Positions 4,745 through 31,710 of a DNA stretch of 36,527 nt are shown here, piece by piece. The stretch's first letter is position 1, and every line of letters begins with the position of its first letter. The notes under the pieces are model-generated. The model saw nothing but the letters and a program-made list of their open reading frames with translations. It was not told the DNA's origin and searched no databases. The position numbers were made by a program, and so were the translations under genes. This DNA is from Patescibacteria group bacterium (GTDB lineage: Bacteria > Patescibacteriota > Saccharimonadia > Saccharimonadales > OMJO01), in contig JBBTTS010000048.1 in NCBI GenBank assembly GCA_038064135.1, forward strand, positions 1-36,527, written 5' to 3'.

Positions 4745-5257
4745 TTATAGCGCAGCTTCGAGGGCAGCCCATTCGGAGTGAGCATCATCTTCGGGCACGT
4801 TAACACTCACCTGATCTCCTGGCTTGGCTTTAAAGTAGGTAACGCTTGCTAAAAGTACCCGGTAGTTTTTACCATTCACGTCAACGAAATAGTGACCATT
4901 TTCTTGTTTTAATCCACCAACAACTTGCTTACGAGGTATTGGACCTATCTGCTTATACATGAAAGAGCCGTCGTCAGCTATAGTGAGTTTTAGGATATCG
5001 CCCTGAACCAACTTAGATTTACTAGCGTAGTTTGCTGGAACTGGATAGGTTTTGCCATCACTGCCCATCATGTTTTGACCATCAAAGACACCCTCGATCA
5101 CTTTGCCGAGGATTTCTTCTTTAAGATTTACAGTAGAAACTATGTCGTCATCGCCAATCACACTAACAAGTAGCTCTTTTGCAGCGGCAAGGCTAGTCTC
5201 GGCTTCGGCAATTAATGTCCTAAGGCGTTTTATTTGTTTCTCTGGAAGGTCGGCCAT
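4745..5257 (-). CDS. Hypothetical protein (N-terminal coiled coil, beta-rich body)
   Basis: 170-aa ORF with IEGVFDGQNM, YPVPANYASKSKLV, YKQIGP, YRVLLASVTYF; from recall, a family found downstream of rplL in CPR genomes. Function unknown. Confidence 0.75.
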   Translation of the reverse strand: MADLPEKQIKRLRTLIAEAETSLAAAKELLVSVIGDDDIVSTVNLKEEILGKVIEGVFDGQNMMGSDGKTYPVPANYASKSKLVQGDILKLTIADDGSFMYKQIGPIPRKQVVGGLKQENGHYFVDVNGKNYRVLLASVTYFKAKPGDQVSVNVPEDDAHSEWAALEAAL

Positions 5258-11438: not shown

Positions 11439-11801
11439 TTATTTACCGTCCGTAACTTGGCTATCGCCTTCAAAAAACAAAGCGTCTGAAAATGCTGTTG
11501 GCAATAACTCCCCGGGAGTCAAATTTTCCCTTGCTGCTTGGGCTCGTGAAATAAGTTCAGCCGTTGGGTAGCCGTTTTCGTCGTATACGGGTTTTACTTC
11601 TACTAATACGCTTGTTGGTATGCCAAGTGCCTGTAAATATGCCTCAGCAGCACCACGTTTAGATAGTTCGTAAAGCCTCTGTGCAGTATTTATATGGCCG
11701 TCAATTGTTTTTGAACTTGCGCCGTTCAGAATCATGCGTTCTGCCCAACCTGGAAATTCGACATCGTGTGGAAGTGAAAACCAATTTTCCCCGGTTGTCA
11801 C
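11439..11801 (-). CDS. Hypothetical protein between rplK and rplA
   Basis: 120-aa ORF fills the gap; GTG start directly abuts the rplK TAA. Confidence 0.6.
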   Translation of the reverse strand: MTTGENWFSLPHDVEFPGWAERMILNGASSKTIDGHINTAQRLYELSKRGAAEAYLQALGIPTSVLVEVKPVYDENGYPTAELISRAQAARENLTPGELLPTAFSDALFFEGDSQVTDGK

Positions 11802-16894: not shown

Positions 16895-17545
16895 CTAACG
16901 AATGATGACATTTCGCCGATTTTGATCTACCCGCCCAGGCACTAAGTTGACTAGCCCGGGTTTGACAACGCCGCTTGCGACCGTGGTAGTCGACACCAGA
17001 CCCATTGTGTAGAGTTTTTTCATAAGTGCACCGCGCTGAGTGTGGTAGGTGTGCTTGCCGCTAACTACAACATACTCCTCGGTAGGGTTGGGATTTTGCA
17101 TATAGCCAGTGAATCTTTGGAACATCTCTTCGCTCATTTCCTGAGCATACTTGTCGTCTGTTTTTCGATGGTCGCGCTTTGATGCTCTTACGTAGGCACT
17201 CTCTAAATCTACCTGCAGCCAAACAATTAATGATTGACATTTGGCACGTCGGCCTAAATCACGCAAAGTGCGGCGCTGTGAGAGCCTCATAGCATTAGTG
17301 TCGTAAACAACTGGAATGCCAGCTTTTAGAAATTCCTCGCCCATGTAATTCATCAGGTGCATTACCAATTCGTTTTCTTGGCGGTCATAACGAGGTTCTT
17401 CAAATAGTTCAAAGCGAATTCTGTCTCCTTGAATATGAGCACCACCAATTTCTTCTGCTAGTTGGCGAGCAAAATAGGTTTTACCAACTCCAGGATACCC
17501 GTAAAGTAAAAATAATACCGGTTCGTTTAGCTGAAGTTTACTCAT
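16895..17545 (-). CDS. P-loop kinase (AAA_33-like)
   Basis: LYGYPGVGKT, DRIRFEL, VVYDTN...R motifs. Confidence 0.8.
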   Translation of the reverse strand: MSKLQLNEPVLFLLYGYPGVGKTYFARQLAEEIGGAHIQGDRIRFELFEEPRYDRQENELVMHLMNYMGEEFLKAGIPVVYDTNAMRLSQRRTLRDLGRRAKCQSLIVWLQVDLESAYVRASKRDHRKTDDKYAQEMSEEMFQRFTGYMQNPNPTEEYVVVSGKHTYHTQRGALMKKLYTMGLVSTTTVASGVVKPGLVNLVPGRVDQNRRNVIIR

Positions 17546-17592
17546 CCATATATGTATAGCAGATTTTAAGTGTTATTAAAAGTGTTTAACAG

Positions 17593-17621
17593 ATGACATA
17601 AACGGTTTCATACTGTAAAAT
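17593..17621 (+). promoter_or_regulatory. sigma70 promoter ahead of the tRNA-Trp half, HNH and tRNA-Trp
   Basis: ATGACA-N17-TAAAAT, 21 nt upstream of the half tRNA. Confidence 0.6.
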
Positions 17622-17642
17622 AGCAGCCAGTGTACCTGCTTA

Positions 17643-17682
17643 AGGGGCATAGTGCAACGGTTAGTATGAAGGCCTCCAAAAC
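17643..17682 (+). pseudogene. Orphan 5' half of a tRNA-Trp(CCA) gene
   Basis: AGGGGCA-TA-GTGC-AACGGTTA-GTAT-G-AAGGC-CTCCAAA-AC: acceptor 5' strand, D-arm and Trp anticodon loop, after which tRNA structure stops. Confidence 0.82.
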
Positions 17683-17702
17683 AATAAGTTATACTAGATT
17701 CC

Positions 17703-18047
17703 ATGGCCTATAAAGATCCTAATGATCCTCGAAGACTTATAAGTGGACGCAAACATTATTTGAAGAATAAAGATAAATATATTGCAAACGCAATTGCCGC
17801 TAAGGAGAAACTGCGCGCATACATTCGTAAGGAAAAAAATAGACCTTGCCTAGATTGTAATGCACAATATCCATATTATGTGATGCAGTTTGACCACATT
17901 AGAGATAAAAAGTATCATATTAGTACCCTCGTGAGTTCGAATAACTTAAAAAAATTACAAGAAGAGCTAAAAAAATGCGAGGTCGTGTGTGCAAATTGCC
18001 ACGCTGAAAGAACTTATCAAAGGGGAGTAGCTCAGCTGGTAGAGTAG
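17703..18047 (+). CDS. HNH endonuclease (phage-type, Zn-binding)
   Basis: CLDC...QFDHI...CEVVCANCHAERT; the last codons (RGVAQLVE*) are the first 27 nt of tRNA-Trp. Confidence 0.88.
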   Translation: MAYKDPNDPRRLISGRKHYLKNKDKYIANAIAAKEKLRAYIRKEKNRPCLDCNAQYPYYVMQFDHIRDKKYHISTLVSSNNLKKLQEELKKCEVVCANCHAERTYQRGVAQLVE

Positions 18048-19671
18048 CGGTCTCCAAAACCGTTGGTCGCAGGTTCGATCCCTGTCTCCCCTGCCATTCA
18101 AGACAAATTGCCTCTTCGGAGGCTTTTTTCATCTGTTCTGGCAAGGTTCTAACCTTATCTAATCTATCTCTTAGTGATTTAGCGTTATTTCTTACCGGTT
18201 CGAGCCACTCATTAGGTGTTATCTGCAGCTTTCCTTGGTAGAGTACAGGGTTCTGACCAATAGAGAGCAGTATGTCTTTTTTGGTTAGTATATTGCCGTC
18301 TGTAAATTTCTCTGTTGCATTCGTTAGTCGTTCAAAGGTTTTTGTGGCAAACTCGTACCAATTTTCTATGCGATATGCCGTCGCTGCTTGCTCTTCGTGT
18401 ATGCTTTTAAGTTCTATTTTAAGTTGGGTGCTTTTTCGTTCATATTCGGCTTCATCTATTAGCTTTTTACTAGGCATGTCGAGCAAATTATCTAGCTGAT
18501 TTTCTAAGCTATTTGCAGTGCCGTGCTGCATTGTTTTAACATCATTTCTGTCTTTTATTTCTTCGTCTGCCATCTCCCTAAACGTGTCCATTGCCCACTC
18601 TTCGAGCTTGGGCGATAATTCATAGCTGTCTAGTAAAACATTTAACTCATCGTATAGTGCTTCTTCTTTTTTATAGCCATACTTATTTACCTGTATACAG
18701 CCACCGCGCTTACCCGTGCAGTGATAATACCTGTGTAGGCTCTCACCACCGTTTTTAAGACGTTTTTTGGTGACTTGCGCCGTAATCATACATCCACACT
18801 GGCCACACGTTATAAAGCCCCTTAAAGCGAATTCTCTGCGGGTTGCAAGACGTGGACATCCTCGGCTACCAAGTAATGCCTGAACCTTATCGTATTCATC
18901 TTGAGTAATCATTGCTGGAAACTCAGATTTGTAAAACGTTTGGCGATCATACGGATCGGGCACTAAACCTGCGTACCGTTCGTTTTTAAAGATGCCGTAT
19001 AGAGCAGACCTAGACAGTGGCCTGTCGCCAGATTTGCTACGTTTTGGAGTGCGGTAATTCCAGCCATCATTCATCGTGCGTAAAATGTCTTGCACGCTAT
19101 GCTCACCTGTTAGGAACATATCAAAAGCTTGCCGGACTAGCGGAAAGCGTAGAGGGTCTTTCACTACGCGATGCGTTGCTATATCGTTCAAGTAGCCTTG
19201 CGGTGCAACGCCTGTTAAACCACCATTCTTGCGCTTTGTTTCATTACCACGCTTTACGTCCTTACTGAGCTTTGCAGAAAAATATTGTGACTGGCTCATA
19301 GTCATCTGCAGCATCATCATGCCTTCTGGCGAATTATCAAAATTAAAGCTTACAAATTTTAATTCTTTTAGGTTACCTTTGGTGACTCTGTGACTTATTG
19401 CTGCTGCGTCTACCGCATTACGCGATAGCCTATCAGGGTGCCATGCTAAAATGCCATCTATTTTACCTTCGTCTATCATTTTAAGTATAGAGGCAAATAC
19501 TGGGCGCTTATCAGGGTCGAAAGCACTCTTGCTTTCATCTAATATGTCTACTATGTTTAAGTCGCTAAATCGCTCACGTATCTTATCGCGCTGCGCTTCT
19601 TTAGATAGCACTTGGCGCTCTTCGTCTTCTGTAGACTTGCGGACGTATCCTATGTATCGTAATTGTTTCAT
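17920..19671 (-). CDS. Large serine recombinase (integrase); last 55 aa are antisense read-through of tRNA-Trp and the HNH gene
   Basis: YVRKSTED catalytic Ser, DRLSRN, APQGY recombinase domain, CGQCG...YYHC...C zinc ribbon, coiled coil. Confidence 0.95.
   Translation of the reverse strand: MKQLRYIGYVRKSTEDEERQVLSKEAQRDKIRERFSDLNIVDILDESKSAFDPDKRPVFASILKMIDEGKIDGILAWHPDRLSRNAVDAAAISHRVTKGNLKELKFVSFNFDNSPEGMMMLQMTMSQSQYFSAKLSKDVKRGNETKRKNGGLTGVAPQGYLNDIATHRVVKDPLRFPLVRQAFDMFLTGEHSVQDILRTMNDGWNYRTPKRSKSGDRPLSRSALYGIFKNERYAGLVPDPYDRQTFYKSEFPAMITQDEYDKVQALLGSRGCPRLATRREFALRGFITCGQCGCMITAQVTKKRLKNGGESLHRYYHCTGKRGGCIQVNKYGYKKEEALYDELNVLLDSYELSPKLEEWAMDTFREMADEEIKDRNDVKTMQHGTANSLENQLDNLLDMPSKKLIDEAEYERKSTQLKIELKSIHEEQAATAYRIENWYEFATKTFERLTNATEKFTDGNILTKKDILLSIGQNPVLYQGKLQITPNEWLEPVRNNAKSLRDRLDKVRTLPEQMKKASEEAICLEWQGRQGSNLRPTVLETATLPAELLPFDKFFQRGNLHTRPRIFLALLVIFLSYSNSRGY
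18021..18096 (+). tRNA. trnW: tRNA-Trp (CCA)
   Basis: 76-nt cloverleaf: AGGGGAG/CTCCCCT acceptor, CTCCAAA anticodon loop, TTCGATC T-loop, G discriminator, encoded CCA. Confidence 0.98.
18110..18129 (+). terminator. Intrinsic terminator for tRNA-Trp, inside the LSR coding sequence
   Basis: GCCTC-TTCG-GAGGC-TTTTTT (cUUCGg tetraloop), 13 nt after the CCA. Confidence 0.85.
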
Positions 19672-19806
19672 TGTTTTAGCTCCAAACTAAAAGGGCGACT
19701 CGGTTGTTCACACTTCCAGTAGCACAAAGCCACTTTCAGATACCAAGCCGCCCTTACGGGTCTGAAAATAAAAACACTTTGTGCGTTATAACTGAAAATG
19801 TGAACA
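19672..19806 (-). ncRNA. Structured 5' leader of the LSR (long hairpin plus 14-bp loop pairing)
   Basis: Nested pairs 19705-12/19799-806, 19714-20/19791-97, 19722-29/19777-84, 19734-40/19761-67. Loop 19742-55 complements 19691-704. Extended -10 TGaTATAAT at 19812-19820. Confidence 0.65.
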
Positions 19807-19840
19807 TTTCTATTATATCACTTTTAAATACAGGTGATGG

Positions 19841-21268
19841 TTACCACTCTCCACCTAGACGTATTGGTGTTACACCCACACCACCGCTACCTATATTGTC
19901 AGTAATGAGGTTGCCTTGTTCATCTAAGAACACTTTTATATAGATATGTAGACTTCGCTTGTCTCCAGCTTCAGGCTGTTTCTGAGTTATAAAACCACTA
20001 TTTTCGAGTAGTGGTAAAATCTGCTTGCGTAGTCGCTCGTCGTCTAGTAACGCACTTTCAACACGCAGATAATAGTTACTCAAATCCTGACGACTAAGCC
20101 CAATGACACCATTTTTCATAGCCAGCTGGTAATCACTATTGCTGTACTTTTTCATCCATGCAGGTAATATATATTTCTTGTAAAAATGCAGGACGGCTGG
20201 TGGTACGTTCAAGTTTTGGCTTGTAGCAATAGCCGCCCATAATCTAAAAGCTTGGTCTATGTCAGACTGACTCGCCAAAATTGTGCCGTCCGGCTGTTTC
20301 CGAAACCATACGTTTAGTAGTGCGATCGCCTTTATCAATTCCATTAAGTGTCGGATATCACGTGCATGACGTGGCTTCAGCCGCGGGAAAGCATTTCGAA
20401 AACGCTTTTCGATCGCTTCTTTGCTCGGCACTACTATGCTTTCTACATGCTCATAGCGTATGGCAATGATGCGCTTTTTAAGTTCTGCACGAGCAGGTTG
20501 TTCTTCTAGCCATTGATTAAAGGCATTTCTGTCTGCGCTACGCCGCACCTCAAGATGTACTGCACTACTCAGCTTTGCTTCACTAACTTCAGGGCTAAGT
20601 AGCAAAAACCGTGTTGCCTCTTGTTCATCCAGTAGCATATTTGCAGAACAGAAGACTGTTGCCGGAAAACCACGCAGAATGACATGCTCAGTACGGTTAG
20701 AGCCTTTATTCTTATTGGTCATCTTGTAGTGTAATTCGCGGTCATCTTTAGATAACAGTGCCCGCAGTTTTTCTTGTAGAAGCGGATTAGGCTGTTCATA
20801 CAGTAGTAATATCTTGCGCTCAAGCGATACCACTTTTGCTCCACGCTCAACATCGTTCACGCCTCTACTATAAAAGAATGACGTAGGGGAAGCGCCGCTC
20901 AATGGTACTTTGTCGACTTCAGGGAATAGCTTTGCAATTTCACTTGTTAAATATGTCTTACCAGAGCTGCTTTGTGCGTTAAAGCTGATGTTAATTTGGT
21001 CTTCGGACGTATACGCACTAAGCATCCCTAAAAAGCCGATAGCCTTGTTTTCGTTATCATCCTTAATAGTCAAAGATAGTACTTCCATGACATCTTCAAC
21101 CGTCATTTCACTAAACTGCGAAATATCTATCGTTGCGTTGATTTCAGCTAACTCAGCTTCCAGCTCACGTTCACGTTTTGCTATTGGGTCTTCGCTTTGC
21201 TTAATCTTTTTTTGTTTAGGTTTTTTATTGTCTGGCGCCGATTCTGGCGCATTAGTAATGTCAGCCAT
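19841..21268 (-). CDS. P-loop ATPase, AAA+/MCM-like putative replication helicase of the island
   Basis: NAQSSSGKT Walker A, ILLLYE Walker-B-like, VFCSAN sensor-1-like, DEQEATRFLLL Arg-finger-like, C-terminal LPLLENSGFI (wHTH-like). Helicase role is inferred. Confidence 0.65.
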   Translation of the reverse strand: MADITNAPESAPDNKKPKQKKIKQSEDPIAKRERELEAELAEINATIDISQFSEMTVEDVMEVLSLTIKDDNENKAIGFLGMLSAYTSEDQINISFNAQSSSGKTYLTSEIAKLFPEVDKVPLSGASPTSFFYSRGVNDVERGAKVVSLERKILLLYEQPNPLLQEKLRALLSKDDRELHYKMTNKNKGSNRTEHVILRGFPATVFCSANMLLDEQEATRFLLLSPEVSEAKLSSAVHLEVRRSADRNAFNQWLEEQPARAELKKRIIAIRYEHVESIVVPSKEAIEKRFRNAFPRLKPRHARDIRHLMELIKAIALLNVWFRKQPDGTILASQSDIDQAFRLWAAIATSQNLNVPPAVLHFYKKYILPAWMKKYSNSDYQLAMKNGVIGLSRQDLSNYYLRVESALLDDERLRKQILPLLENSGFITQKQPEAGDKRSLHIYIKVFLDEQGNLITDNIGSGGVGVTPIRLGGEW

Positions 21269-21440
21269 TGTTGCTAACCTCCGTATTATTAGTTAATTCT
21301 TGCTGCTTTTGAGCCTTAGCAAGCGTAAATCGCATAATTGCAAGGCCAGCCTCTTGCGTTTGCTCATCGGTCAATTCCAGTCCGTGTAGCTCGCTCAGAA
21401 GTGCTTGCAATTCTTTAATTTGTTGGCTGCTTAATCTCAT
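21261..21440 (-). CDS. Small 59-aa helical protein (missing from ORF track)
   Basis: MRLSSQQIKELQALLSELHGLELTDEQTQEAGLAIMRFTLAKAQKQQELTNNTEVSNNG*. Its stop overlaps the ATPase start (ATGGCTGA); TAATCT lies 7 nt upstream of the ATG. Confidence 0.75.
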   Translation of the reverse strand: MRLSSQQIKELQALLSELHGLELTDEQTQEAGLAIMRFTLAKAQKQQELTNNTEVSNNG

Positions 21441-21514
21441 ACCGTCCAGATTAATCCTGCGGGGATAGCTAAAAGCAAAACTCCCGATAGCCTCACGATA
21501 TTTATGCGGGTAAC

Positions 21515-21537
21515 AAAAAAGCCGCTTGTGACGGCTT
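21515..21537 (-). terminator. Intrinsic terminator after ORF 21566-22633
   Basis: Minus strand AAGCCG-TCACAAG-CGGCTT-TTTT. Confidence 0.7.
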
Positions 21538-21538
21538 A

Positions 21539-21581
21539 CGATTTACTCGCGATTTTTCTCGCGATTTACTCGCGATTTTTT
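21539..21581. repeat. Tandem 11/12-bp repeat, about 3.7 copies
   Basis: CGATTTACTCG-CGATTTTTCTCG-CGATTTACTCG-CGATTTTTT; three TCGCGA palindromes. Confidence 0.9.
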
Positions 21582-22633
21582 GTTTTCACATTATTAGATT
21601 GTTTCTTGACTGCTTCAACCTGTTTGTCATTCAGCATGGCAACTGGTGTAAATTGGATCTTTCCGTTCTTACTTTTTGGGAAAAACGCAAGCTTCATCTG
21701 CTTATTAAATCCACTATGTCGTATAAGTTCTGATATGTCTTTAGCGGATTGCAGTGTTCCCTTAAGCGCTTTTATGTCGTCTATGCCTATACTAAACCCA
21801 GCATTTTCTTCGTCAAGCACATAGTTCATGAATCTATCATAAGAACCGCCTTTTTCAAGTTGTGCAATTGTGTAGTTTTGGTCACCACTTATTGAAATAA
21901 TTATTAGACGTCCGTCTTTAATGATTCGACCCTCATGTTTGGTTCCTTCACCGTCTGCCAGTACCGGAACAATATCGGATGGGGGTGTGGGGGTGACAGT
22001 ATTTGGTCTTTTTGTGCCAAGCCGCTTAATATCAGTTACTAGCGTATTGTCTGTAATCGTAAAGTCAATTAAGGGTTGAGCGTCATCATCATACATTCCA
22101 TCGTTGCGCCGCCCGTAAGCCATGTAAGTAATTTTCACTTGCTTATCGAGCAGTTGCCACGACAGGACTAACTCCCAGAACTTTGGTGCATACTCGAGGG
22201 CACTGGGATCACCATATACATTCTTAAGTGTAATACGTGGTTCATTTATATTATTAGGGTAAGCTAGTGCAACTGCATCGATTAGCAACGATTTTTGGCG
22301 CATAAAATCTGGTGGCTTATTGGCAGGTAATGAAAGTAGTTTATCTTGTTGCCATTGACGTAAGTATTCTATTAGGACGCTATTGGCTTTCTTGCTGTTT
22401 ACACTTGTTATTTTGTAGAGTGCGCCTGTACTTTCGTAGTCTATAAGGCCTAGTTTACGGTACTCGTTAAGCTCTAGATTGATAAATTTCATGTCTGTGC
22501 CTATGAAATATGGCGTGTAAAACAAAGGATTAACCTCGTGCCCAAGAAGCTTTTCGGGGAATAGTGCTAAAGTAGCGACAAAATACACCCTATGCTCTGG
22601 CCAATATAGTTGCGGTTCAATTTTCATATTCAT
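21566..22633 (-). CDS. Hypothetical island protein
   Basis: 355-aa ORF, no motif recognised. Confidence 0.7.
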   Translation of the reverse strand: MNMKIEPQLYWPEHRVYFVATLALFPEKLLGHEVNPLFYTPYFIGTDMKFINLELNEYRKLGLIDYESTGALYKITSVNSKKANSVLIEYLRQWQQDKLLSLPANKPPDFMRQKSLLIDAVALAYPNNINEPRITLKNVYGDPSALEYAPKFWELVLSWQLLDKQVKITYMAYGRRNDGMYDDDAQPLIDFTITDNTLVTDIKRLGTKRPNTVTPTPPSDIVPVLADGEGTKHEGRIIKDGRLIIISISGDQNYTIAQLEKGGSYDRFMNYVLDEENAGFSIGIDDIKALKGTLQSAKDISELIRHSGFNKQMKLAFFPKSKNGKIQFTPVAMLNDKQVEAVKKQSNNVKTKNRE

Positions 22634-22693
22634 TGTTGCCTATATTATCGTTCAACGTAGGTTAAAGCCCAAGCTTAAGAATCTTAAAAATAC

Positions 22694-23332
22694 CTATTTT
22701 TTGCGTTCGTCAGATGATCTTTTGCTTTGTTTTGCAGTCTTGGGTTTAGTGTCGTTTAGCTTTTTACCCGTTTTAGGGTCCAGTCCATGGTCAACCAAGT
22801 ATGCATTTAAGCGAATTGTTTCCTGGCCTATGCTTTGTTCGAAATAATTAGCCATTTCATAGAATTTAACACCATGATAAGTAAGTTTGGTTTCCGGTTC
22901 AGTGTGTTTAGGGAACCATTTGTCTTTATAGGCATGAGCGTAGTGGTGACTACGAACAATCTTGCTGTCTTCTAGTTCTTTGCCTTCGTCTTTAGCCAAA
23001 GCTTCTAGAACATATTGTAATTCAGTACCATAAAGCTTCCATGCCTTATCAAAGTGCTTTTTTTCGGTTGGGTCGCTAGGTTTGTAGTCATGATCTTTTA
23101 TAACGTGTAGAACAAACTCTATGTCTGCTGTTTTTCTAAATTCATGATGGTGAAGGTGGCGAATGTCCCAGTAGTAGAAATCTTTACCAAAGTGATCGCG
23201 CAATATTATTAATTTCCACCTTAACCAATTCATGAGTACGGTATGGTTCGGGGGTATGTATTCAGCTACGTAAGTGCCTTTTTCATTAATAAAGTGGAGC
23301 AGCGGTTCCATAGAGATTTCTTGATTTGCCAT
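22694..23332 (-). CDS. Hypothetical island protein (His-rich)
   Basis: 212-aa ORF; TATAAT 9 nt upstream of the ATG. Confidence 0.7.
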   Translation of the reverse strand: MANQEISMEPLLHFINEKGTYVAEYIPPNHTVLMNWLRWKLIILRDHFGKDFYYWDIRHLHHHEFRKTADIEFVLHVIKDHDYKPSDPTEKKHFDKAWKLYGTELQYVLEALAKDEGKELEDSKIVRSHHYAHAYKDKWFPKHTEPETKLTYHGVKFYEMANYFEQSIGQETIRLNAYLVDHGLDPKTGKKLNDTKPKTAKQSKRSSDERKK

Positions 23333-23436
23333 ATTAATAACATTATAAGATTATGATGGCCTAATAACTAAGCCTATTACCTTAATAATTCAAAATATGT
23401 CTAAGCATTTAAGGTCAAACTATATAGGAAAGCACC

Positions 23437-26400
23437 TTAGGAGTTTTTAGCTTGGCGGCTCCACTCGTTGCCATATCTTTTTGCTTGCTCTAGAACTAAA
23501 TCAGTGGCAATAGCTTGCTGATCCGGTGGGTAGCCGTATTTTGCCAAAGTTTTCTTTACATTAATGCGTAGTTTAGCCTGTACACTCTTGCGGAACTGCC
23601 AGTCAATAGAAGCATCACGCCGTACTTGTTCTACCAATAGTTTGGCAATTTCTCTGAGTTGCTGATCATCCATGACTTCTTGAGCGCTACCGTTATCAAC
23701 TAGTGCATCATAAAAAACTACTTCATCTTCAGTCAGTCCAAGCTCAGTGCTTGCATTCACGGCCTCACGGATATCTTTGCCAATAGCAATAAGTTCTTCG
23801 ATTACTTGTGCAGCTTCGATAGTGCCATTCTTATATCGATTAAGCGCCTTTGTAAGCATTTCAGAAAACTTGGCATCTTTTACGGCGTTACGGCCAAACT
23901 TAGCCTTAACCTCATCGTTAAGTAGTTTCTTTAAGGCTTCAACTGCCAAATTCTTGCGCTCCATTGCGCGTATTTCGGCAAAAAATTCATCACTAAGAAT
24001 CGATATTTCTGGCTTATCTAGACCTGCCGCTTCAAATACGTCAACAACACCAACCGGTGCAATTGCTTTGTCGACAATCTGCTTAAGTGCCGTCCTGTAC
24101 TCTTCGTCACCAATTACACCACTTCTAGCCGATACTTTTTCTATGCGTGCCTTAACAGCTTGGAAAAACGCTACTTCTTCACGAATTGCCAGTGCATCAG
24201 GCTGCGGCATAGCAAGCGCAAAAGCCTTACTAAGCTCCAGAACATGTTGCTTAATACGCTTCTCACCGTCATCAATGCTTAGTATATGTTCTTCCGCATC
24301 AAGGATAATCTGAAGTTTCTCATTTGTTGGTGCGTTAAAGTATTTCTTATAGTCAAAAGTGCCGAACAAGTCACGCACTATTTCGTAGCGCATTTTCATC
24401 TGTGCTATAGCTTCTGATATATCTAGCTGTGGAATACCTTCGCCGCCACTTCGAGTATAATCGGCCATCGCGTCGCGCAATGCACCTGCAACGCCTAAAT
24501 AGTCCACCACAAGTCCACCGATTTTACCTGGCCATACACGGTTAACTCTTGCAATGGCCTGCATAAGGTTATGGCCCTTAATAGGCTTATCTAGATACAT
24601 TGTATGTAAGCTAGGCACATCAAAACCTGTAAGCCACATGTCGCATACAATTACCATCTCAAGTGAATCGTCAGGGTTTTTGATTCGTTTTTCGATAGCC
24701 TTAATTCGTTTTTTGTTACGAATATGCGGCTGCAAATGTTCTGGATCGCTAGCTGATCCAGTAATAATAACTTTTATAGCACCACTCGCATCATCGTCGC
24801 TGTGCCATTCGGGTCGGTAGGCTATAATTTTTTCGTATAAATCAGCAGCTATTCCGCGGCTCATCGTCACGATCATTCCTTTACCCTCTATTACATCTTG
24901 TCGAGCTTCAAAGTGCTCAATTATGTCTAAGGCGATTGTATTCAACCGTTCGGCATTGCCAACGATAGCTTCTTTTTGGGCGTACTCTGTTTTAAGCTTG
25001 TCTTGCCGTGATAATTCTTCGCCCTCTAGCAATTCGTCAACTTCACGATCAAGCCATTCTTTGGTATCTTCGTCCATGCCCAAATCAACGAGACGGCTTT
25101 CATAATAAATTGGCACTGTAGCACCATCTTCCACAGCTTGTTTCACATCGTAAATGTCTACATAGTCTCCAAATACTGCAGGTGTTGATTTATCATCTGA
25201 TTCTATAGGTGTACCCGTAAAGCCAATATAACTAGCACTGGGTAGCCCATCACGCATATATTTTGCATATCCGTATACTAAATGCGCGTCACTTTCTCGG
25301 ATTCGTGCTTTTAGCCCATACTGGCTTCGATGAGCTTCGTCTACCATAACTATGACATTTCGACGATTAGTTAGTACTGGTAAAGTATCATCTTCGTCTT
25401 CTGGCGAGAATTTTTGAATGGTGGTGAATATAATTCCACCCGCATTTCTTTCAAGTAACTTGCGTAGGTCTCCACGATTTTCAGCTTGTTTAGGATCTTC
25501 GCCTAATAGATCTCGGCATGCACTAAAGGTGCCAAACAATTGTCCATCAAGGTCGTTTCGGTCAGTCACTACGACAATAGTAGGATTTTGCAGTTCACGG
25601 CTTCGCATCATTTTGCCTGTATAAAACACCATACTAAGTGATTTGCCAGAGCCTTGAGTATGCCACACCACTCCAGCCCTCTGATCACCATCGCCGCTAC
25701 TAGCACGCAGCGTACTTGCTAGTGACTTATTTACCACCCAGTATTGGTGATACGCTGCTACCTTTTTTATAAACTGTGTTTCGTCTTTGTCGTCACGTTC
25801 AAATACTATAAAATTTTGCACTAAATCCAGTAGTCGCGTAGGGTCACATACGCCACGCGTCAGAATATCCATCATTGGCACGCGCCCTACTTCTTTTTCG
25901 CCATCTACAGTCTTCCAGGGCATCATGCGCTCTGGGCTACTACTTAATGTACCCATTTCAGCTTCAATGCCATCACTAATAATGCATAGTTCATTAAATC
26001 TAAAGAAGTCGCTTATTTCTCGCTTATAGGTTTGAATCTGGCGGTAGGCTGCAGCAAGATCTGCTTTGCTGTCGGCGGCATTTTTTAGTTCTACCAACAC
26101 CAGGGGTAGACCATTAACAAACAACACCACATCGGGCCGCCGGTGAAAATCACCCTGAAGTACCGTTAGTTGATTGACTGCTACAAATTCGTTATTGAGC
26201 GCATTATCAAAATCCAACACCCTGGCGCGATCGTGCTTTATGTCTCCAATATCGTTACGGTATTCTACCGGCACGCCGTCTACTAGCATTTCGTGAAAAG
26301 CGCGATTATTTTCTAGCAGAGTTGGCTGTTGTACTCTAGTGAGACGTTTGAGTGCTTCACTAAGGGAAGCGGTAGGTATTTGTGGGTTTAGCCGCTCTAG

Positions 26401-26547
26401 CGCAGATTGCAAACGATTATTCAGTACGGTGTCATGATAATCACGCTCAAGCGTGCCATCAGGCCCAATTTCTGGACCATGCAATACTTGCCAACCCATT
26501 TGGGCAAGTGTTTCAAGAGTAGATTGCTCTATTTGATCCTCGGTCAT
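23437..26547 (-). CDS. hsdR: Type I restriction endonuclease subunit R
   Basis: RPDVVLFVNGLPLVLVELK nuclease motif, WHTQGSGKS, DEAHRSQYG, FTGTP, MWLTGFD, LMQAIARVNR. Start at 26547 via TAATG overlap. Confidence 0.97.
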   Translation of the reverse strand: MTEDQIEQSTLETLAQMGWQVLHGPEIGPDGTLERDYHDTVLNNRLQSALERLNPQIPTASLSEALKRLTRVQQPTLLENNRAFHEMLVDGVPVEYRNDIGDIKHDRARVLDFDNALNNEFVAVNQLTVLQGDFHRRPDVVLFVNGLPLVLVELKNAADSKADLAAAYRQIQTYKREISDFFRFNELCIISDGIEAEMGTLSSSPERMMPWKTVDGEKEVGRVPMMDILTRGVCDPTRLLDLVQNFIVFERDDKDETQFIKKVAAYHQYWVVNKSLASTLRASSGDGDQRAGVVWHTQGSGKSLSMVFYTGKMMRSRELQNPTIVVVTDRNDLDGQLFGTFSACRDLLGEDPKQAENRGDLRKLLERNAGGIIFTTIQKFSPEDEDDTLPVLTNRRNVIVMVDEAHRSQYGLKARIRESDAHLVYGYAKYMRDGLPSASYIGFTGTPIESDDKSTPAVFGDYVDIYDVKQAVEDGATVPIYYESRLVDLGMDEDTKEWLDREVDELLEGEELSRQDKLKTEYAQKEAIVGNAERLNTIALDIIEHFEARQDVIEGKGMIVTMSRGIAADLYEKIIAYRPEWHSDDDASGAIKVIITGSASDPEHLQPHIRNKKRIKAIEKRIKNPDDSLEMVIVCDMWLTGFDVPSLHTMYLDKPIKGHNLMQAIARVNRVWPGKIGGLVVDYLGVAGALRDAMADYTRSGGEGIPQLDISEAIAQMKMRYEIVRDLFGTFDYKKYFNAPTNEKLQIILDAEEHILSIDDGEKRIKQHVLELSKAFALAMPQPDALAIREEVAFFQAVKARIEKVSARSGVIGDEEYRTALKQIVDKAIAPVGVVDVFEAAGLDKPEISILSDEFFAEIRAMERKNLAVEALKKLLNDEVKAKFGRNAVKDAKFSEMLTKALNRYKNGTIEAAQVIEELIAIGKDIREAVNASTELGLTEDEVVFYDALVDNGSAQEVMDDQQLREIAKLLVEQVRRDASIDWQFRKSVQAKLRINVKKTLAKYGYPPDQQAIATDLVLEQAKRYGNEWSRQAKNS

Positions 26548-27467
26548 TATTTTCCTCTCCACTGATCATAAGCCATAGAATCAGCCATTGCTTCATAATA
26601 AGCATTCAAAGCCTCAATATCTTGTTCCTTTAATTCGTTATCAAGAATATTTTTATCATTACAGAGTTCAGAAAAATAGCTAACAAGTGTAATAGCCGAA
26701 TTTACTGCCAGCTTTGCATGACGAATACCTGGTTTATGCTCTGTTCCATGAGCATCAGAAGCCTTGTTTCGCAAACCAGAAAGCCCTGCTATCATACTAT
26801 TCATGCCGGTAATAAGCTGCTTTAATGGCGTGTTGTATAACTCAGGGTCCATATCAAACCGTCTAGATACTTCATTTCCGATTTTCCCCAAATTACCTTC
26901 TAGTTTTCTGTCATACCCACCCTCGGTATTTTTTAGAATCCAAATATATAATTGCTCCACCATAGAACGTGCATTAGTAATTGCGCCTTCGTAATCTTCA
27001 TCGGCAATTTTCTGCTGACATTTTCGATAATGCGCATCAATCCAGTTTTGCAAATTGTCTCCAAGAGATTTCGGTAGTGTAGCAACATCTAACTGCACAT
27101 CAGCACCAACAGAAAGAACTTTTGGAAATTTTCCTGCCATAACTATTTTGTAACCATCAAATTCTAAAAATTGGTTTAAATATTGAATATTATCACCCAA
27201 AATAACACCTTCGTGACCTATGTAGTTCATAGGGTGAAGCTGCTTTTCTATTACCTTTTTTATCTTATCTGTTCCATTTAGCTGCTTTAAACAATTCTCT
27301 GTCATAAACCAGCGAGAACCAGGCTCTGGGGATATGTCAAACTCTGCAAAAAATTCTTGTATGTCGGTTCCTCTTTTATATATTGAACGTGCTGCATTGT
27401 TTGGCCCTTGTTCATCACCATTTATAATCAATCTAATTGCCTCAATAGTGCGTTCGCTCAGAGTCAT
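26547..27467 (-). CDS. Abortive-infection family protein (Abi_C / HEPN-like C-terminal domain)
   Basis: DYEGAITNARSMVE, LSGLRNKASDAHG, HAKLAVNSAIT; translationally coupled to hsdS and hsdR. Confidence 0.8.
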   Translation of the reverse strand: MTLSERTIEAIRLIINGDEQGPNNAARSIYKRGTDIQEFFAEFDISPEPGSRWFMTENCLKQLNGTDKIKKVIEKQLHPMNYIGHEGVILGDNIQYLNQFLEFDGYKIVMAGKFPKVLSVGADVQLDVATLPKSLGDNLQNWIDAHYRKCQQKIADEDYEGAITNARSMVEQLYIWILKNTEGGYDRKLEGNLGKIGNEVSRRFDMDPELYNTPLKQLITGMNSMIAGLSGLRNKASDAHGTEHKPGIRHAKLAVNSAITLVSYFSELCNDKNILDNELKEQDIEALNAYYEAMADSMAYDQWRGK

Positions 27468-28603
27468 ACTTTAATCTTTCCTGAAATGAGTCGTGGCAGA
27501 AGAATATCACGGAGAGTAATAAGATATTGAATTTCTCTTGAGTTGACAACCTGTTGATCATAGATCGGATTCGCAATGCTTGAAAATTCTGCCATTATTT
27601 CTTTAGGTGCATCTATATATGTAAAGCGATCTATATCAGTTTTACTTAAATGTATTACTGTTGTACCAATTTTTGTATTTTCATAAAATGCGAGTTGAGG
27701 TCGAATAGTTTCAAGTAAAAATAGCTTCGAAATAAATGTTGTTTTGGGCTCAAAAGCACACACTCTTTGGTTGAGCCAAGCAGGATCACGTGCCCAAATA
27801 ATAGGCTTAAATTCTGCATCCATCCCTGCGATTATATCTCCTGCTTTTATAAGCCGACCTTTTTTATGATTTTCTGTAGTCCATATCGTCGGTACTTGAG
27901 ATTTTAGATCACGAATCCTTATAAGTGGTATACCTTCACATTCTTCATTGAAAAATTTCGAGCTAAAAGGTGCTCCATTAACTATCTCTGCTAATTCGTA
28001 TATGCTTTGCTTACCCCACTTTTCAGCTTCGGGGTTGGTGATGAAATAGTGACGGAAGAGTGCTTTACCAATTTGTTCCAGCGTATCGTTCATTTTCCGA
28101 TTCAACTCAATTTTTTCGTCGATTGATCCAAGAATACTTACTATTCTATTTTGCGTATCCAGTGTCGGGAGAATTATTTGCATTGAAGCTATTTGTTTAG
28201 CACCAAGATTCTGCTGTGCAGCACCTGTAGCAGCGCCTAGAAGCTTTTCGTAATTGTTTAATAGGTAATAGTAGACATACCTATAATCGGCTTTTTTGTG
28301 ATCAATAATTAGATTACAGCATGCTTGGTTTGTAGTTAACGGGATTTTATTAATTGCAGACTTGCCAGCCGTGGCACCATACATTGCAATAATGACCGAA
28401 TTTTCAGGTATTAGTTTTGCGGATGAATTCTTTAGTCCAGAATCAGTAATTGTCTTTTCTGTACGATATATATTCCCAAATTTCACTTCCTGTGTTCTTA
28501 ACCATGGTATATCACCGTTATAATATTCGGGATGTTTGGTTGAAGGTGTACCTCCAGAAGTTACTTTTGTGCAAATATCTCCTAGCAAAACAGTTTGAGG
28601 CAT
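27464..28603 (-). CDS. hsdS: Type I RM specificity subunit S
   Basis: SGGTPS, TNQACC, LGSIDEKIELNRKMNDTLEQ central conserved region, LRDILLPRLISG. Confidence 0.96.
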   Translation of the reverse strand: MPQTVLLGDICTKVTSGGTPSTKHPEYYNGDIPWLRTQEVKFGNIYRTEKTITDSGLKNSSAKLIPENSVIIAMYGATAGKSAINKIPLTTNQACCNLIIDHKKADYRYVYYYLLNNYEKLLGAATGAAQQNLGAKQIASMQIILPTLDTQNRIVSILGSIDEKIELNRKMNDTLEQIGKALFRHYFITNPEAEKWGKQSIYELAEIVNGAPFSSKFFNEECEGIPLIRIRDLKSQVPTIWTTENHKKGRLIKAGDIIAGMDAEFKPIIWARDPAWLNQRVCAFEPKTTFISKLFLLETIRPQLAFYENTKIGTTVIHLSKTDIDRFTYIDAPKEIMAEFSSIANPIYDQQVVNSREIQYLITLRDILLPRLISGKIKV

Positions 28604-30087
28604 TATTTATCATGCCCTATCTTTGCTAGTTGTTCTTGTATATTCGCTGCTAGTTCATGGCTTTTTATAAATTGCTCACCTAGATCAGTAGTTAACCGTT
28701 CCATTTTTTCAGCAAAAGCTTCATCGTCCTCTTCTACTACAACCGCGCCAACATAACGTCCTGGTGTTAGCACATAATCGTGTTCTTTTATTTCGTCTAA
28801 TGAAGCGACCTTACAAAAGCCTGCAACGTCTTCGTACTTACCATTTTGAGTTTTAAAGTTATGATACGCATCGGTAACTAGGGTAATATCTTCCTCTGTA
28901 AGCTCACGATTCTTGCGATTAATCATCTTTCCCAGGTTTCGACCATCTATAAACAGTACTTTACCGTGGCGATTAGTTCGTTCGCGCGATATAAACCACA
29001 AACAACAGGGTATGGCTACATTAAAGAATAGCTGACTTGGTAGTGTTACTATGCAATCCACCATATCGTTAAGTACTATTTGCTTTCGTATGTCGCCCTC
29101 GCCATTGCTTTGGCTGCTCATACTACCGTTCGCCAGAACAAACCCAGCTGTACCCCGCGGACTAAGATGATGAATAAAGTGTTGTATCCAAGCAAAGTTG
29201 GCATTACCCTTAGACGGCATACCGTATTTCCATCGAATGTCATCCTGTAAATGTTCTTGGCCCCAATCGCTAATATTGAACGGCGGGTTGGCAATTATAT
29301 AGTCAGCTTTTAAGTCTGGTAGTTGATCGTGAGTAAGTGTGTCGCCACGGCGAATGTCTGCGTCTATACCTCGAATAGCCATATTCATTTTGGCAAGCCT
29401 CCAGGTGGTCTCATTCAGCTCTTGACCATACACTGCAATATCATCAATACGGCCTGCATGTTCTGCAATAAATTTTTCGCTCCATACAAACATTCCACCG
29501 CTACCACAGCATGGATCGTAAACACGCCCCTTGTACGGTTCAAGCATTTCGACAAGTAGTTTTACTATGGATCGAGGTGTATAGAATTCACCACCATGCT
29601 TGCCCTCGCTATCGGCAAACATTCCCATAAAGTATTCGTATACCTGGCCAAGTAGGTCCTTCGCATCAGTAGTCGCAAAGCTAATATTAGTAAATAGATC
29701 AATTAACTCACCCAAACGTCGCTTATCTAGTGCTTCTCGTGCGTATTCTTTAGGCAAAACACCTTTTAGAACTGAGTTGTCACGCTCTATGGCTTCCATT
29801 GCCTCGTCGACTAAAACGCCAATATTTGGCTGTTTAGCATTGGCAGTTAGGTTATCCCAGCGCGCTTCTTTAGGTATCCAAAAAACGTTATCTGCAAGAT
29901 AAAAATCACGGTCTTCTGGATCAAATTTCTCACTCTCTGCCTTTTTATATTGTTCAGTGAACGCGTCCGATACATATTTAAGGAATATTAAACCAAGTAC
30001 AACATACTTATAGTCAGATGAGTTTATGTTGCCTCGAAGCTTATCTGCCGCAGCCCAAAGCTGTTTTTCTAATTCTTGTGTATTCAT
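28603..30087 (-). CDS. hsdM: Type I RM N6-adenine methyltransferase subunit M
   Basis: [40 protein letters not shown]. Start set at ATG 30087 (MNTQELEK). Confidence 0.97.
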
Positions 30088-30325
30088 TTTATTATCTCGC
30101 AATCTATAACAAATATAATTACTCTCATTAAAAGTATTATAGCTCTTTTTTACAGGCATAAACTAATGTTATTTCACACTGAGTGTAGCAAGATGCATAT
30201 GCTTATATTTGTATATTCCAAAATTTTCAAAAATATTTGGTACGGTACATATCGTATGTTTTTGGTATCACTTAATTTAGTACCCCCCCTCGAACGGTAT
30301 TCTTTCTGTTAATGGGTCATTTTGA

Positions 30326-30379
30326 TTAGACTGTCACAGTGGTCAGCAGGGTTCTAACTTGTACTAGCACGCCCTGCCA
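30326..30379 (-). other. Right attachment site; encodes the displaced LSR C-terminus WQGVLVQVRTLLTTVTV*
   Basis: Core CCCTGCCA 30372-30379; 18 codons ending TAA (30326-28), in frame with LSR codon W526; GTTCTAAC at 30351-30358. Confidence 0.8.
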
Positions 30380-30501
30380 AATTTTTTATAGAGTCCTCGC
30401 TTAATTCGTATTCTTCATTTGTTAAATTACTTTGTGTATAAGTGCTTGTGTTTAGTGCTTGTAAAAACTATAATTTACAGAGGTAAACAATAAGGGGTCG
30501 G

Positions 30502-31710
30502 GTGAAGGTATTAATGCTAGGCTGGGAGTTACCGCCATACCACGTAGGGGGTATGGGCATTGCTTGTGAACAACTTTGCCGTAATTTGGCCAGCACAGGT
30601 GTAGATATCGAGTTTGTAATTCCATTTGATGCCGATTTCAGCCATTTAGATTATATGAATGTCAATCCGGCCACCACAATCAATTTTTATACTATGGCTG
30701 CAAACAACTTTGATATTTATAGTAGCAAGCACTACCACACATCTACTCAAACCCTGCCAGCTAACGATATTGAAGTTGCCTACGAAAAATATGTAGAAAA
30801 ACTTGTAAACCTTGGTAGTTTCGATATTATCCATGCGCATGACTGGCTTACGTTTCGGGCTGGGCTCAGTGCCAAACAAAAAAGTGGCAAGCCTTTAATT
30901 GTTCACGTACATGCCACAGAATTTGATCGAGCCGGTAGGGCTTACGGCAACCAATTGGTACGTGAAATTGAATACATGGGGTTTCAGTTGGCTGATCGGA
31001 TAATTGCCGTTAGCCAAGCCACTAAACAGATAATAATTGATGAATATGGTATTTCTGCTTCAAAAATAGACGTTGCTCATAACGCTTATCACTTTAATCC
31101 TTACGAACAACTTAACGGTTTGAATGTATATAAATATCTGGATCTATTAAAAAAACATGGTTATCAAGTTGTTTTAAGCGCTGGAAGATTAACAATTCAA
31201 AAAGGTCTAACCCACCTAATGCGCGCTGCTAAAGATGTAATTGCTCACCAGCCAAAAACTATCTTCTTATTTGTTGGCAGCGGTGATCAATATAACGAAT
31301 TAATTAGGCTTTCTGCCGAACTAGGTATCTCCAACAATGTTATTATGGTTGGACATTTAAACGGCACAGGCCAGCCGTGGCGTGATTCCTTTAGGATTGC
31401 CGATGTATTTGTTTTGCCGTCGGTTTCGGAACCCTTTGGACTAACACCTTTAGAAGCATTGAGTCATTCCACGCCGGTAATAATTAGCAAACAATCGGGT
31501 GTTTCGGAAGTTTTAAACCATTGTCTAAAAGTAGATTTTTGGGATGAGCAAGAGCTTGCTAATAAGTTAATAGCTGTGTTACGAGACTTGCCACTCAAAA
31601 GCATGCTGTCCGAAAATGGTCAGCGTGAGTTAAATCACATCACCTGGAAACGCTCAATTGATACAATTGTTGAAGCCTATCAAAGGCACTTACAGGGGGC
31701 GTCGCCGTGA
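30502..31710 (+). CDS. GT4 family glycosyltransferase (glycogen-synthase-like)
   Basis: MLGWELPP..GGMG, IHAHDWLT, VHATEFDR, GRLTIQKG, PSVSEPFGLTPLEA. Confidence 0.92.
   Translation: MKVLMLGWELPPYHVGGMGIACEQLCRNLASTGVDIEFVIPFDADFSHLDYMNVNPATTINFYTMAANNFDIYSSKHYHTSTQTLPANDIEVAYEKYVEKLVNLGSFDIIHAHDWLTFRAGLSAKQKSGKPLIVHVHATEFDRAGRAYGNQLVREIEYMGFQLADRIIAVSQATKQIIIDEYGISASKIDVAHNAYHFNPYEQLNGLNVYKYLDLLKKHGYQVVLSAGRLTIQKGLTHLMRAAKDVIAHQPKTIFLFVGSGDQYNELIRLSAELGISNNVIMVGHLNGTGQPWRDSFRIADVFVLPSVSEPFGLTPLEALSHSTPVIISKQSGVSEVLNHCLKVDFWDEQELANKLIAVLRDLPLKSMLSENGQRELNHITWKRSIDTIVEAYQRHLQGASP

Follow-up and report, generated by a model that had tools for sequence, protein, structure and literature searches.

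An attachment site inside the 3′ end of a large serine recombinase gene in a Patescibacteria defence island, and the probable exchange of the recombinase C-terminus at a tRNA gene

Archaeal integrases of the SSV1 type carry attP inside the int gene, and the gene is partitioned by integration. Further precedents are known from bacteria and their phages, described here and throughout from excerpts of the papers cited. In mycobacteriophage BPs, attP lies in the repressor gene (Hatfull 2022, PMC9262239, on Broussard 2013). In the ssrA islands of Dehalococcoides, the large serine recombinase (LSR) gene dsiB overlaps attL and has a stop codon outside the island only; McMurdie et al. (2011, BMC Genomics 12:287; PMC3146451) proposed that dsiB is possibly fully functional only on the circularised element. 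Given that overlap and that hypothesis, the idea pursued below is not itself new. For the integrase of SPβ, residue F532 is said to matter for directionality (PMC11722253, citing Abe et al. 2021). Here we analyse a 36,527-nucleotide stretch of a Saccharibacteria genome (contig JBBTTS010000048.1, positions 1 to 36,527; hereafter the window), in which a 12,283-bp mobile island with defence genes (18097-30379) lies at the 3′ end of a tRNA-Trp gene, and in which the LSR gene of the island reads out across the island end, antisense, into that tRNA gene. A preliminary description of this DNA proposed that the recombination site lies inside the LSR gene, integration swapping the C-terminus of the protein, and knew of no such case among tRNA-targeting LSRs. 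The claim to novelty is too strong: the overlap is known for tmRNA-targeting islands (PMC3146451), and for tRNA-targeting LSRs or Patescibacteria we found no description of the arrangement in a literature search that left supplements uncovered and subscription journals mostly outside.

Our analysis makes it probable that this is an LSR-mediated island with attP in the recombinase's own gene, that the tail of the gene is coding in the circular form only, that the two states would give different isoforms, and that the island would bring a replacement terminator for the tRNA gene. The tRNA-Trp gene is present as a single copy among the 39 tRNAs detected in the window's own genome (0.81 Mb, 90.7% complete). 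The LSR open reading frame (ORF) has no stop before its 583rd residue, and none within the island. Past the core its frame reads 55 more residues antisense through tRNA-Trp and into an HNH-like ORF, and the codons for Q527 and G528 lie opposite its acceptor end, in antisense. At the far end of the island, the frame read antisense from 30379 gives W-Q-G-VLVQVRTLLTTVTV and reaches a TAA at 30326-30328; 525 residues plus these 17 make a protein of 542 amino acids. The features on which the argument turns are the following.

18021-18096, plus strand: tRNA-Trp gene (CCA anticodon; ARAGORN), the integration target, left intact; LSR codon W526 is its 3′ CCA read in antisense.
17920-19671, minus strand: LSR gene in the integrated state, 583 amino acids (ORF, domain scan); residues 1-528 are island plus core, residues 529-583 host antisense sequence.
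18089-18096, no strand: core copy in attL, CCCTGCCA; its antisense encodes W526-Q527-G528, and the crossover must be inside it.
30372-30379, no strand: core copy in attR, CCCTGCCA; island-conserved sequence stops here and host DNA starts.
30326-30370, minus strand: detached 3′ end of the LSR gene, 14 codons (VLVQVRTLLTTVTV) and TAA; in frame with the core and joined to the gene only in the circular form.
18110-18129, plus strand: terminator-like hairpin GCCTC-TTCG-GAGGC followed by six T residues, on the tRNA-sense strand, 14 nt past CCA.
18145-18153, plus strand: internal GGTTCTAAC; its antisense, GTT AGA ACC, is the V-R-T of DKVRT and is conserved at the nucleotide level.
30350-30358, plus strand: P-arm copy of GGTTCTAAC, which starts 30 nt from the CCA end; a candidate site for the zinc-ribbon domain.

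Our ORF and tRNA calls bear out what the preliminary description had read from this region, namely an LSR without a stop inside the island, W526-Q527-G528 at the core, 55 added residues and 583 in total, and an in-frame 542-residue LSR, with its stop at 30326-28, once the two core copies are joined. The echo of an internal DKVRT by the V-R-T of the tail, which it had also remarked on, is real at the DNA level, in the form of the identical 9-mer GGTTCTAAC at both positions. The location of attP inside the last 17 codons of the LSR gene, with integration exchanging the last 14 of 542 codons, is supported by the comparisons described below. The intact 542-residue LSR is encoded by the excised circle only.

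The protein has what is expected of a serine integrase: a resolvase catalytic domain (PF00239, E 7.7e-23, residues 7-151), a recombinase domain (PF07508, E 1.3e-8), a zinc ribbon (PF13408, 24.6 bits, slightly below the cut-off of 25.3) with an inserted coiled coil, and a short att core. R11, K12 and S13 are invariant among 40 aligned homologues, as is W526 in 40 aligned LSR sequences, and C289, C292, C318 and C325 are likewise invariant in the alignment. AlphaFold2 places long paired helices, the coiled coil, at 354-401 and 407-449, and the best Foldseek matches of the LSR model are the integrases of SPβ, Bxb1, phiC31 and A118 (best E 9.5e-17). By its domains and att sites the protein is classed as an LSR, and catalysis of attP x attB recombination is predicted.

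The attL and attR of the window island share the 8 bp CCCTGCCA. An 8-bp repeat is by our estimate expected about 0.2 times per strand in 12 kb, i.e. near chance, and no longer direct repeat at the island ends was present among the 20 largest direct-repeat families listed. We therefore settled the junctions by comparison with relatives, using both island flanks as queries against 60 relatives and the window's own genome, from which ten regions were retrieved. Two of the nine tRNA-Trp loci compared, the window and G027:C27, run from CCA into a homologous LSR end ('ttcaagac...gcctc...ggttctaacc'). Six have unrelated DNA after CCA, beginning with 'aa' in four of them (G011, G024, G044 and G047), and the last ends at a contig end, its continuation contig beginning with the last 55 nt of the tRNA and then 'aatagg'. 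A homologue of the glycosyltransferase at 30502 lies within about 125-400 bp after the tRNA in G024, G044 and G047, and G024 also shares spacer blocks with the DNA past 30379 (AAGTGCTTGTG, CTATAATTTAC and the beginning of the glycosyltransferase gene). G011:C9 (95% identity) and G027:C35 (83%) conserve about 40 bp of the island's right end, with each genome having its own sequence beyond CCCTGCCA. Island-free relatives, then, join the tRNA CCA to homologues of the DNA after 30379, which is the favourable outcome of a test that the preliminary description had set in advance as a possible refutation. On these alignments the crossover is placed inside CCCTGCCA, which reads W-Q-G on the LSR strand and acceptor end plus CCA on the tRNA strand.

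The same data bear on whether recombination might instead have occurred at the second repeat, GGTTCTAAC (18145/30350), or whether the 8-bp repeat is accidental and the ORF merely overlaps the tRNA gene. GGTTCTAAC is, at 9 bp, longer than the core, and the near-chance expectation of the 8-bp match within 12 kb speaks for an accident. However, the empty sites of relatives break precisely after CCA, two islands have a common 'ttcaagac...' immediately after it, conservation at the right end stops at CCCTGCCA, and in the circular contig L160, described next, W-C-R leads straight into VLVEVRT. We regard this explanation as exceedingly improbable. Crossover at GGTTCTAAC in particular was rejected, being contradicted by the empty-site and junction comparisons.

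L160 is a metagenome contig of 7,111 bp with an exact 127-bp terminal overlap, and hence a circle of 6,984 bp. Its LSR gene is contiguous and encodes 542 amino acids, the C-terminus reading ...DWCRVLVEVRTLLLDYSTV / WCRVLVEVRTLLLDYSTV, each followed by a stop; the gene directly upstream of it is 56% identical to the 475-residue ORF of the window. Contiguous tails were seen at seven metagenome loci and at two or three GTDB loci. Since circular and contiguous forms exist, excision occurs in the family.

The layout of the window LSR recurs widely among its relatives. The 120 best database homologues, 54-100% identical, all have a C-terminal region ending ...KVRT.PQQIQKASEEA....W. After this conserved Trp, 66 continue into antisense-tRNA-like peptides (DSNPR, ESNSH etc.) and 28 stop at most three residues from it; eight have contiguous tails of the VRT type (a ninth, P0119, was missed by the locating pattern), 16 were unplaced and two were of other kinds. 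We also surveyed loci around these genes, 80 from GTDB genomes and 80 from metagenome contigs. Where the C-terminal region could be aligned, ARAGORN found an antisense tRNA whose CCA is the in-frame TGG of the LSR at 57 of 71 GTDB and 39 of 62 metagenome loci (96/133 overall). The CCA lay in another frame at one GTDB locus and two metagenome loci, and the rest comprised contig ends, truncated tRNA pieces, contiguous tails and other cases. At least 11 tRNA isotypes are targeted across the family, including tRNAs for Gly, Gln, Tyr, Ser, Trp, Arg, Asn, Met, Leu and Asp, with the conserved Trp codon always corresponding to the CCA, and the two codons after W (WQG, WCG, WCR, WYT, WLG, WWG, WRR) track the acceptor stem of the target. 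The core shared by attL and attR measures 7-10 bp in family members, in a search that demanded at least 7. The records belong mostly to Saccharimonadales, with others from Peribacteria/Peregrinibacteria, Gracilibacteria and further groups. Judged from sequence, the split LSR layout is the rule in a large Patescibacteria family.

Some members of this family deserve separate mention. The window's own genome contains a second LSR gene of the family, on contig C73 (L036) at 777-1178, which ends ...EWCRV and a stop, antisense in tRNA-Tyr(gta) at 826-911; the contig breaks inside this gene. The 3′ end of the second LSR gene shares at least 30 nt with that of the window LSR, and assemblies consequently break at 18066-18102. 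At two GTDB loci, L081 and L079, what lies at the end of the LSR gene (about 11578-11602) is a 3′ fragment of a truncated tRNA-Gln-like sequence; L081 has a complete tRNA-Gln gene 2.4 kb beyond it. This points to insertions that are nested or in tandem on the tRNA side too. A scan of IMG/VR with the family alignment returned 38 pattern matches and zero relatives.

To collect detached tails, we ran the tail pattern W-x-x-[VI..][LIV..]-x-[EQ..]-V-R-T on the 2.21 Mb of the 160 loci and obtained 59 matches in the LSR sense vs. 8 in the opposite sense. These sites are kilobases away from the LSR gene, on its upstream side. The length from W to the stop has a median of 18 residues (interquartile range 17-21) and is 17 in the window; frame, length and VRT motif are all conserved in the homologues, on which the preliminary description had likewise staked its case. 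Codons 11-13 played no part in finding the tails, and their second base is T in 29, 42 and 31 of 43 cases, respectively, while their first and third positions vary freely. In these alignments this three-base periodicity is the signature of codons for hydrophobic residues. Six tails of the WQG type, of which two had been recovered through DNA similarity rather than the pattern, were compared over codons 4-12; the proportion of synonymous differences (pS) was 0.53 vs. 0.10 for non-synonymous differences (pN), figures that come from 15 non-independent pairs over just 9 codons. A tail copy in G011 that has no adjoining LSR gene shows two non-synonymous and no synonymous changes relative to the window tail, as expected for a decaying scar. 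These comparisons give good support to the view that purifying selection maintains the tail as coding sequence. The central proposal of the preliminary description, an att site within the LSR gene and a C-terminus swapped on integration, is thus backed by empty sites, homologue tails and a circular contig.

Tails also occur in series. Two or three of them stand in tandem at eight loci, spaced 0.3-1.7 kb apart, upstream of integrated islands (L040, 704-3017; L056, 1672-3435; L048, 1967-2890; also L050, L059 and L038), and G011:C9 (L025) has two, at 4918 and 5497, beside a tRNA-Trp gene without an LSR. Such arrays may have been left as scars by earlier islands, or may serve as alternative attR partners.

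The tail seems to be constrained at the level of DNA as well as protein. Its V-R-T is written GTT AGA AC(T/C) far more often than codon usage would predict: the Arg codon is AGA in 27 of 34 tails and AGG in 6 of 34, against a background in family LSR genes of 16% for AGA, 31% for GTT and 27% for ACC. The internal V-R-T is exactly GTTAGAACC in 23 of 35 homologues. On the tRNA strand, GGTTCTAAC resembles the GGTTCGA of the T-arm, with GGTTC starting 25 nt from the CCA end in the T-arm vs. 30 nt in the P arm. Rutherford et al. (PMC3783163) place the zinc-ribbon-domain motif 5 bp nearer the centre in attB than in attP. We infer that the T-arm GGTTC and the tail GGTTCTAAC are putative zinc-ribbon-domain motifs of the B and P arms, with the same 5-bp offset; if the published geometry applies, the crossover dinucleotide would fall within the shared core, some 6-7 nt from the CCA end. 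The two copies of GGTTCTAAC flank the reconstructed attP in direct orientation, and the internal copy is 49 nt from CCA, unlike a canonical P′ arm.

Constraint on the DNA would also be expected if the overlap were a by-product of packing, i.e. if the P arm had to adjoin a tRNA-like core, the tail were kept as a DNA-binding site and both proteins worked alike. The codon choice in tail and internal VRT fits this explanation, as does the motif lying 5 bp further out than its T-arm counterpart, in keeping with the published offset between attP and attB (PMC3783163). The integrated forms carry between 0 and more than 100 extra residues, so that, for persistence at least, the enzyme can do with any C-terminus. 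A mere binding site, however, fits poorly with the second-position T kept in codons 11-13 between free first and third positions, with a pS five-fold above pN, with the exclusively non-synonymous changes of the G011 scar, or with the structural model described below, where the tail is a confident continuation of a helix. We consider the by-product explanation unlikely, and selection on the tail as part of the protein the better account.

The consequences of the exchange for the protein were examined by structure prediction. AlphaFold2 was run on P0012, a natural contiguous homologue 77% identical to the window LSR (39-sequence alignment, mean predicted local distance difference test score, pLDDT, of 81.1), and on the integrated LSR of the window (40-sequence alignment, mean pLDDT 75.6). 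In the P0012 model, the last helix extends from 512 to 538, through W-Q-G and into the tail, with a block pLDDT of 83-92. In the integrated LSR the same helix spans 512-527 only, and residues 529-583 have a pLDDT below 50. The tail of the integrated LSR is set by the host sequence, lacks conservation and is predicted to be disordered. According to the models, the swap would replace about three turns of the C-terminal helix by a disordered host stretch, or by an immediate stop in other members of the family.

A disordered C-terminus could mean that integration disables the enzyme, in the manner of SSV1-type 'suicide', leaving the chromosomal copy inactive and the island fixed unless a full-length enzyme is provided in trans. 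The arrays of two or three detached tails at several loci, maybe remains of islands decayed in place, would agree with this, as would the lack of an excision product in assembled contigs, although rare forms are beyond the reach of such contigs. Yet the catalytic and DNA-binding domains are all intact, more than 90 loci retain conserved, full-length integrated copies, a point in favour of continued selection on them, and the circular and contiguous forms are evidence that excision happens in the family. Inactivation by integration is in our view very improbable.

The region past the core also has a terminator-like element embedded in it. The hairpin at 18110-18129 is the antisense of LSR codons K-K-A-S-E-E-A. 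Its register shifts between subfamilies, with stems of GCCTC/GAGGC, GAGCC/GGCTC, GCGCC/GGCGC or GACCC/GGGTC, and we therefore used a hairpin scan with synonymous resampling rather than one fixed structure. A hairpin of at least 5 bp with a T-run was present in 36 of 56 family members, vs. 6.7 ± 2.2 after synonymous resampling (maximum 13 in 200 runs). The native sites in G011, G027:C35 and G044 carry hairpins of their own straight after CCA. These observations suggest that the island supplies a replacement terminator for a tRNA gene cut off from its own.

In the mechanism that we propose, the LSR would have inserted the island at the 3′ end of tRNA-Trp through an attP inside its own gene end. 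Integration would move the last 14 LSR codons to the far end of the island and leave the gene reading antisense tRNA. Full-length LSR, made from the circle, would be the form selected for integration, and the tail-less chromosomal LSR would differ from it in activity, directionality or stability. That two isoforms control directionality or stability, as the preliminary description had put it, is plausible, and is indirectly supported by the purifying selection on the tail, by the predicted contrast between helix and disorder, and by the reported effect of the extreme C-terminus of SprA on directionality (PMC11722253). We advance a more elaborate version tentatively and hold it to be possible rather than probable. 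Here the tail swap would act as a directionality or commitment switch, the circle-encoded LSR integrating and the chromosomal form being subject to other coiled-coil control or stability, with no classical recombination directionality factor (RDF). Some 110 bp of DNA would serve at once as coding sequence, attP, acceptor-end mimic and terminator, retargeting would proceed via the two codons after Trp, and tail arrays would act as alternative attR partners that shuffle cargo.

Several points weigh against an LSR gene split by its own attP into functionally distinct forms, or limit the evidence for it. The circle or empty-site joint of the window island was not seen in the assembled Logan contigs of four runs over 17000-31500 (X1 and X3 possibly from the source sample, X5 and X6 from another study), contigs that cannot show rare forms; short contigs of other sequence account for the single joint listed (18163 to 18241, with 77 skipped). 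The tail pattern selects amino acids at codons 4-10 and biases entropy figures there, for which reason we relied on other evidence for selection, and the pS/pN comparison has the narrow base stated above. The overuse of GTT AGA AC(T/C) means that the motif could be retained as a binding site rather than as protein. The P′ and B′ arms were found to lack the motif in inverted orientation, which leaves the att-site model incomplete. Tails end in Y-S-[TI]-[VA] in 12 of 56 unique cases only, and the existence of a shared degron is therefore not supported; no tail ends in -LAA, and ARAGORN detected no tmRNA in the 90.7%-complete window genome. Lastly, the sequences in all counts are related and the collections overlap partly (L136 and L050 bear the name of one and the same contig), so that the counts describe one family, not independent events.

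The remaining features of the island and its left flank are listed below.

17703-18047, plus strand: HNH-like ORF, 114 amino acids, with the motif C..C...H...C..C..H; weak PADLOC match to a type IV restriction enzyme (E 0.003).
19841-21268, minus strand: 475-residue protein with a P-loop-like SSSGKT and no family match; conserved partner upstream of the LSR gene.
21566-23332, minus strand: two ORFs, of 355 and 212 amino acids, with no family match.
23437-26562, minus strand: hsdR, type I restriction-modification cargo (domain scan).
26547-27467, minus strand: AbiJ/Abi_C-like gene, cargo (domain scan).
27464-28603, minus strand: hsdS, type I restriction-modification cargo (domain scan).
28603-30159, minus strand: hsdM, type I restriction-modification cargo (domain scan).

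The HNH-like ORF covers the first 27 nt of tRNA-Trp, and the last 43 codons of the integrated LSR frame overlap it antisense. Searches of Pfam, PHROGs, PADLOC and NCBIfam gave zero matches for the ORFs of 475, 355 and 212 residues. A protein of the 475-residue type is encoded directly upstream of the LSR gene, on the same strand, in 45 of 80 GTDB loci and 30 of 80 metagenome loci. Its look-alikes in the atlas fall in clusters with PF27228 in 10-41% of members (archaea, bacteria, Uroviricota), no more than a lead towards a protein for replication, or a partner protein, of plasmid or virus type. At two positions of the window, G at 18474 and C at 25132, all covering Logan contigs instead read C and T, including those of the possible source runs.

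If the isoforms do differ, the position of attP would set a self-contained directionality or commitment switch, which bears on LSR control and on the use of these enzymes in genome engineering. The family is also a natural series of close LSRs retargeted among tRNA isotypes, in which core codons track the acceptor stem, and as such a data set on the evolution of site specificity. There are practical consequences too. The preprint of Durrant et al. describes filters on LSR coding length and on distance to the element edge, with overlap not mentioned in the excerpt drawn on here; att-site pipelines that filter in this way may mishandle such integrases. Gene callers will give these integrases wrong C-termini. 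Finally, in Saccharibacteria and other Patescibacteria, whose genomes are very small and whose mobile DNA is little known, the elements appear to be a main vehicle of defence genes (type I restriction-modification, Abi).

Compared with the systems described at the outset, the present locus shares a feature with each and differs from all. SSV1-type integrases are tyrosine recombinases whose gene is disrupted into two large parts, whereas here 14 of 542 codons are exchanged and the domains are kept. BPs resembles it in having attP within a gene, a tRNA 3′ end as target, a protein changed by the loss of C-terminal residues and no evident RDF; there, however, a tyrosine integrase is at work, it is the repressor gene that is split and an ssrA-like tag is lost, whereas here a serine LSR splits its own gene and carries no -LAA-like tag (PMC9262239). 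SPβ SprA, the best structural match, sets a precedent for an effect of the extreme LSR C-terminus on directionality, but its C-terminus is constant, with the RDF SprB as the switch and no tail swap (PMC11722253).

The closest likeness in arrangement is to DsiB, an LSR of about 540 residues at the attL edge that reads outward, with a 3′ end overlapping attL, divergent C-termini antisense through the target RNA gene, and tandem direct-repeat arrays downstream of the target (PMC3146451). The differences lie in the target, tmRNA with a 20-bp repeat and a crossover in the T-loop there, tRNAs with a 7-10-bp core at the acceptor/CCA end here, and in gene content: the six-gene module of DsiB includes a second, small serine recombinase, DsiA, whereas among the eight island ORFs scanned with Pfam the resolvase domain is found in the LSR only. 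A conserved detached tail, selection on it and a circular form are not reported in the parts of the Dehalococcoides paper drawn on here. What is new in the present case is the targeting of a tRNA acceptor end with CCA as a Trp codon, a family in Patescibacteria (candidate phyla radiation, CPR), a conserved tail under selection, a circle, and a dual-coded terminator.

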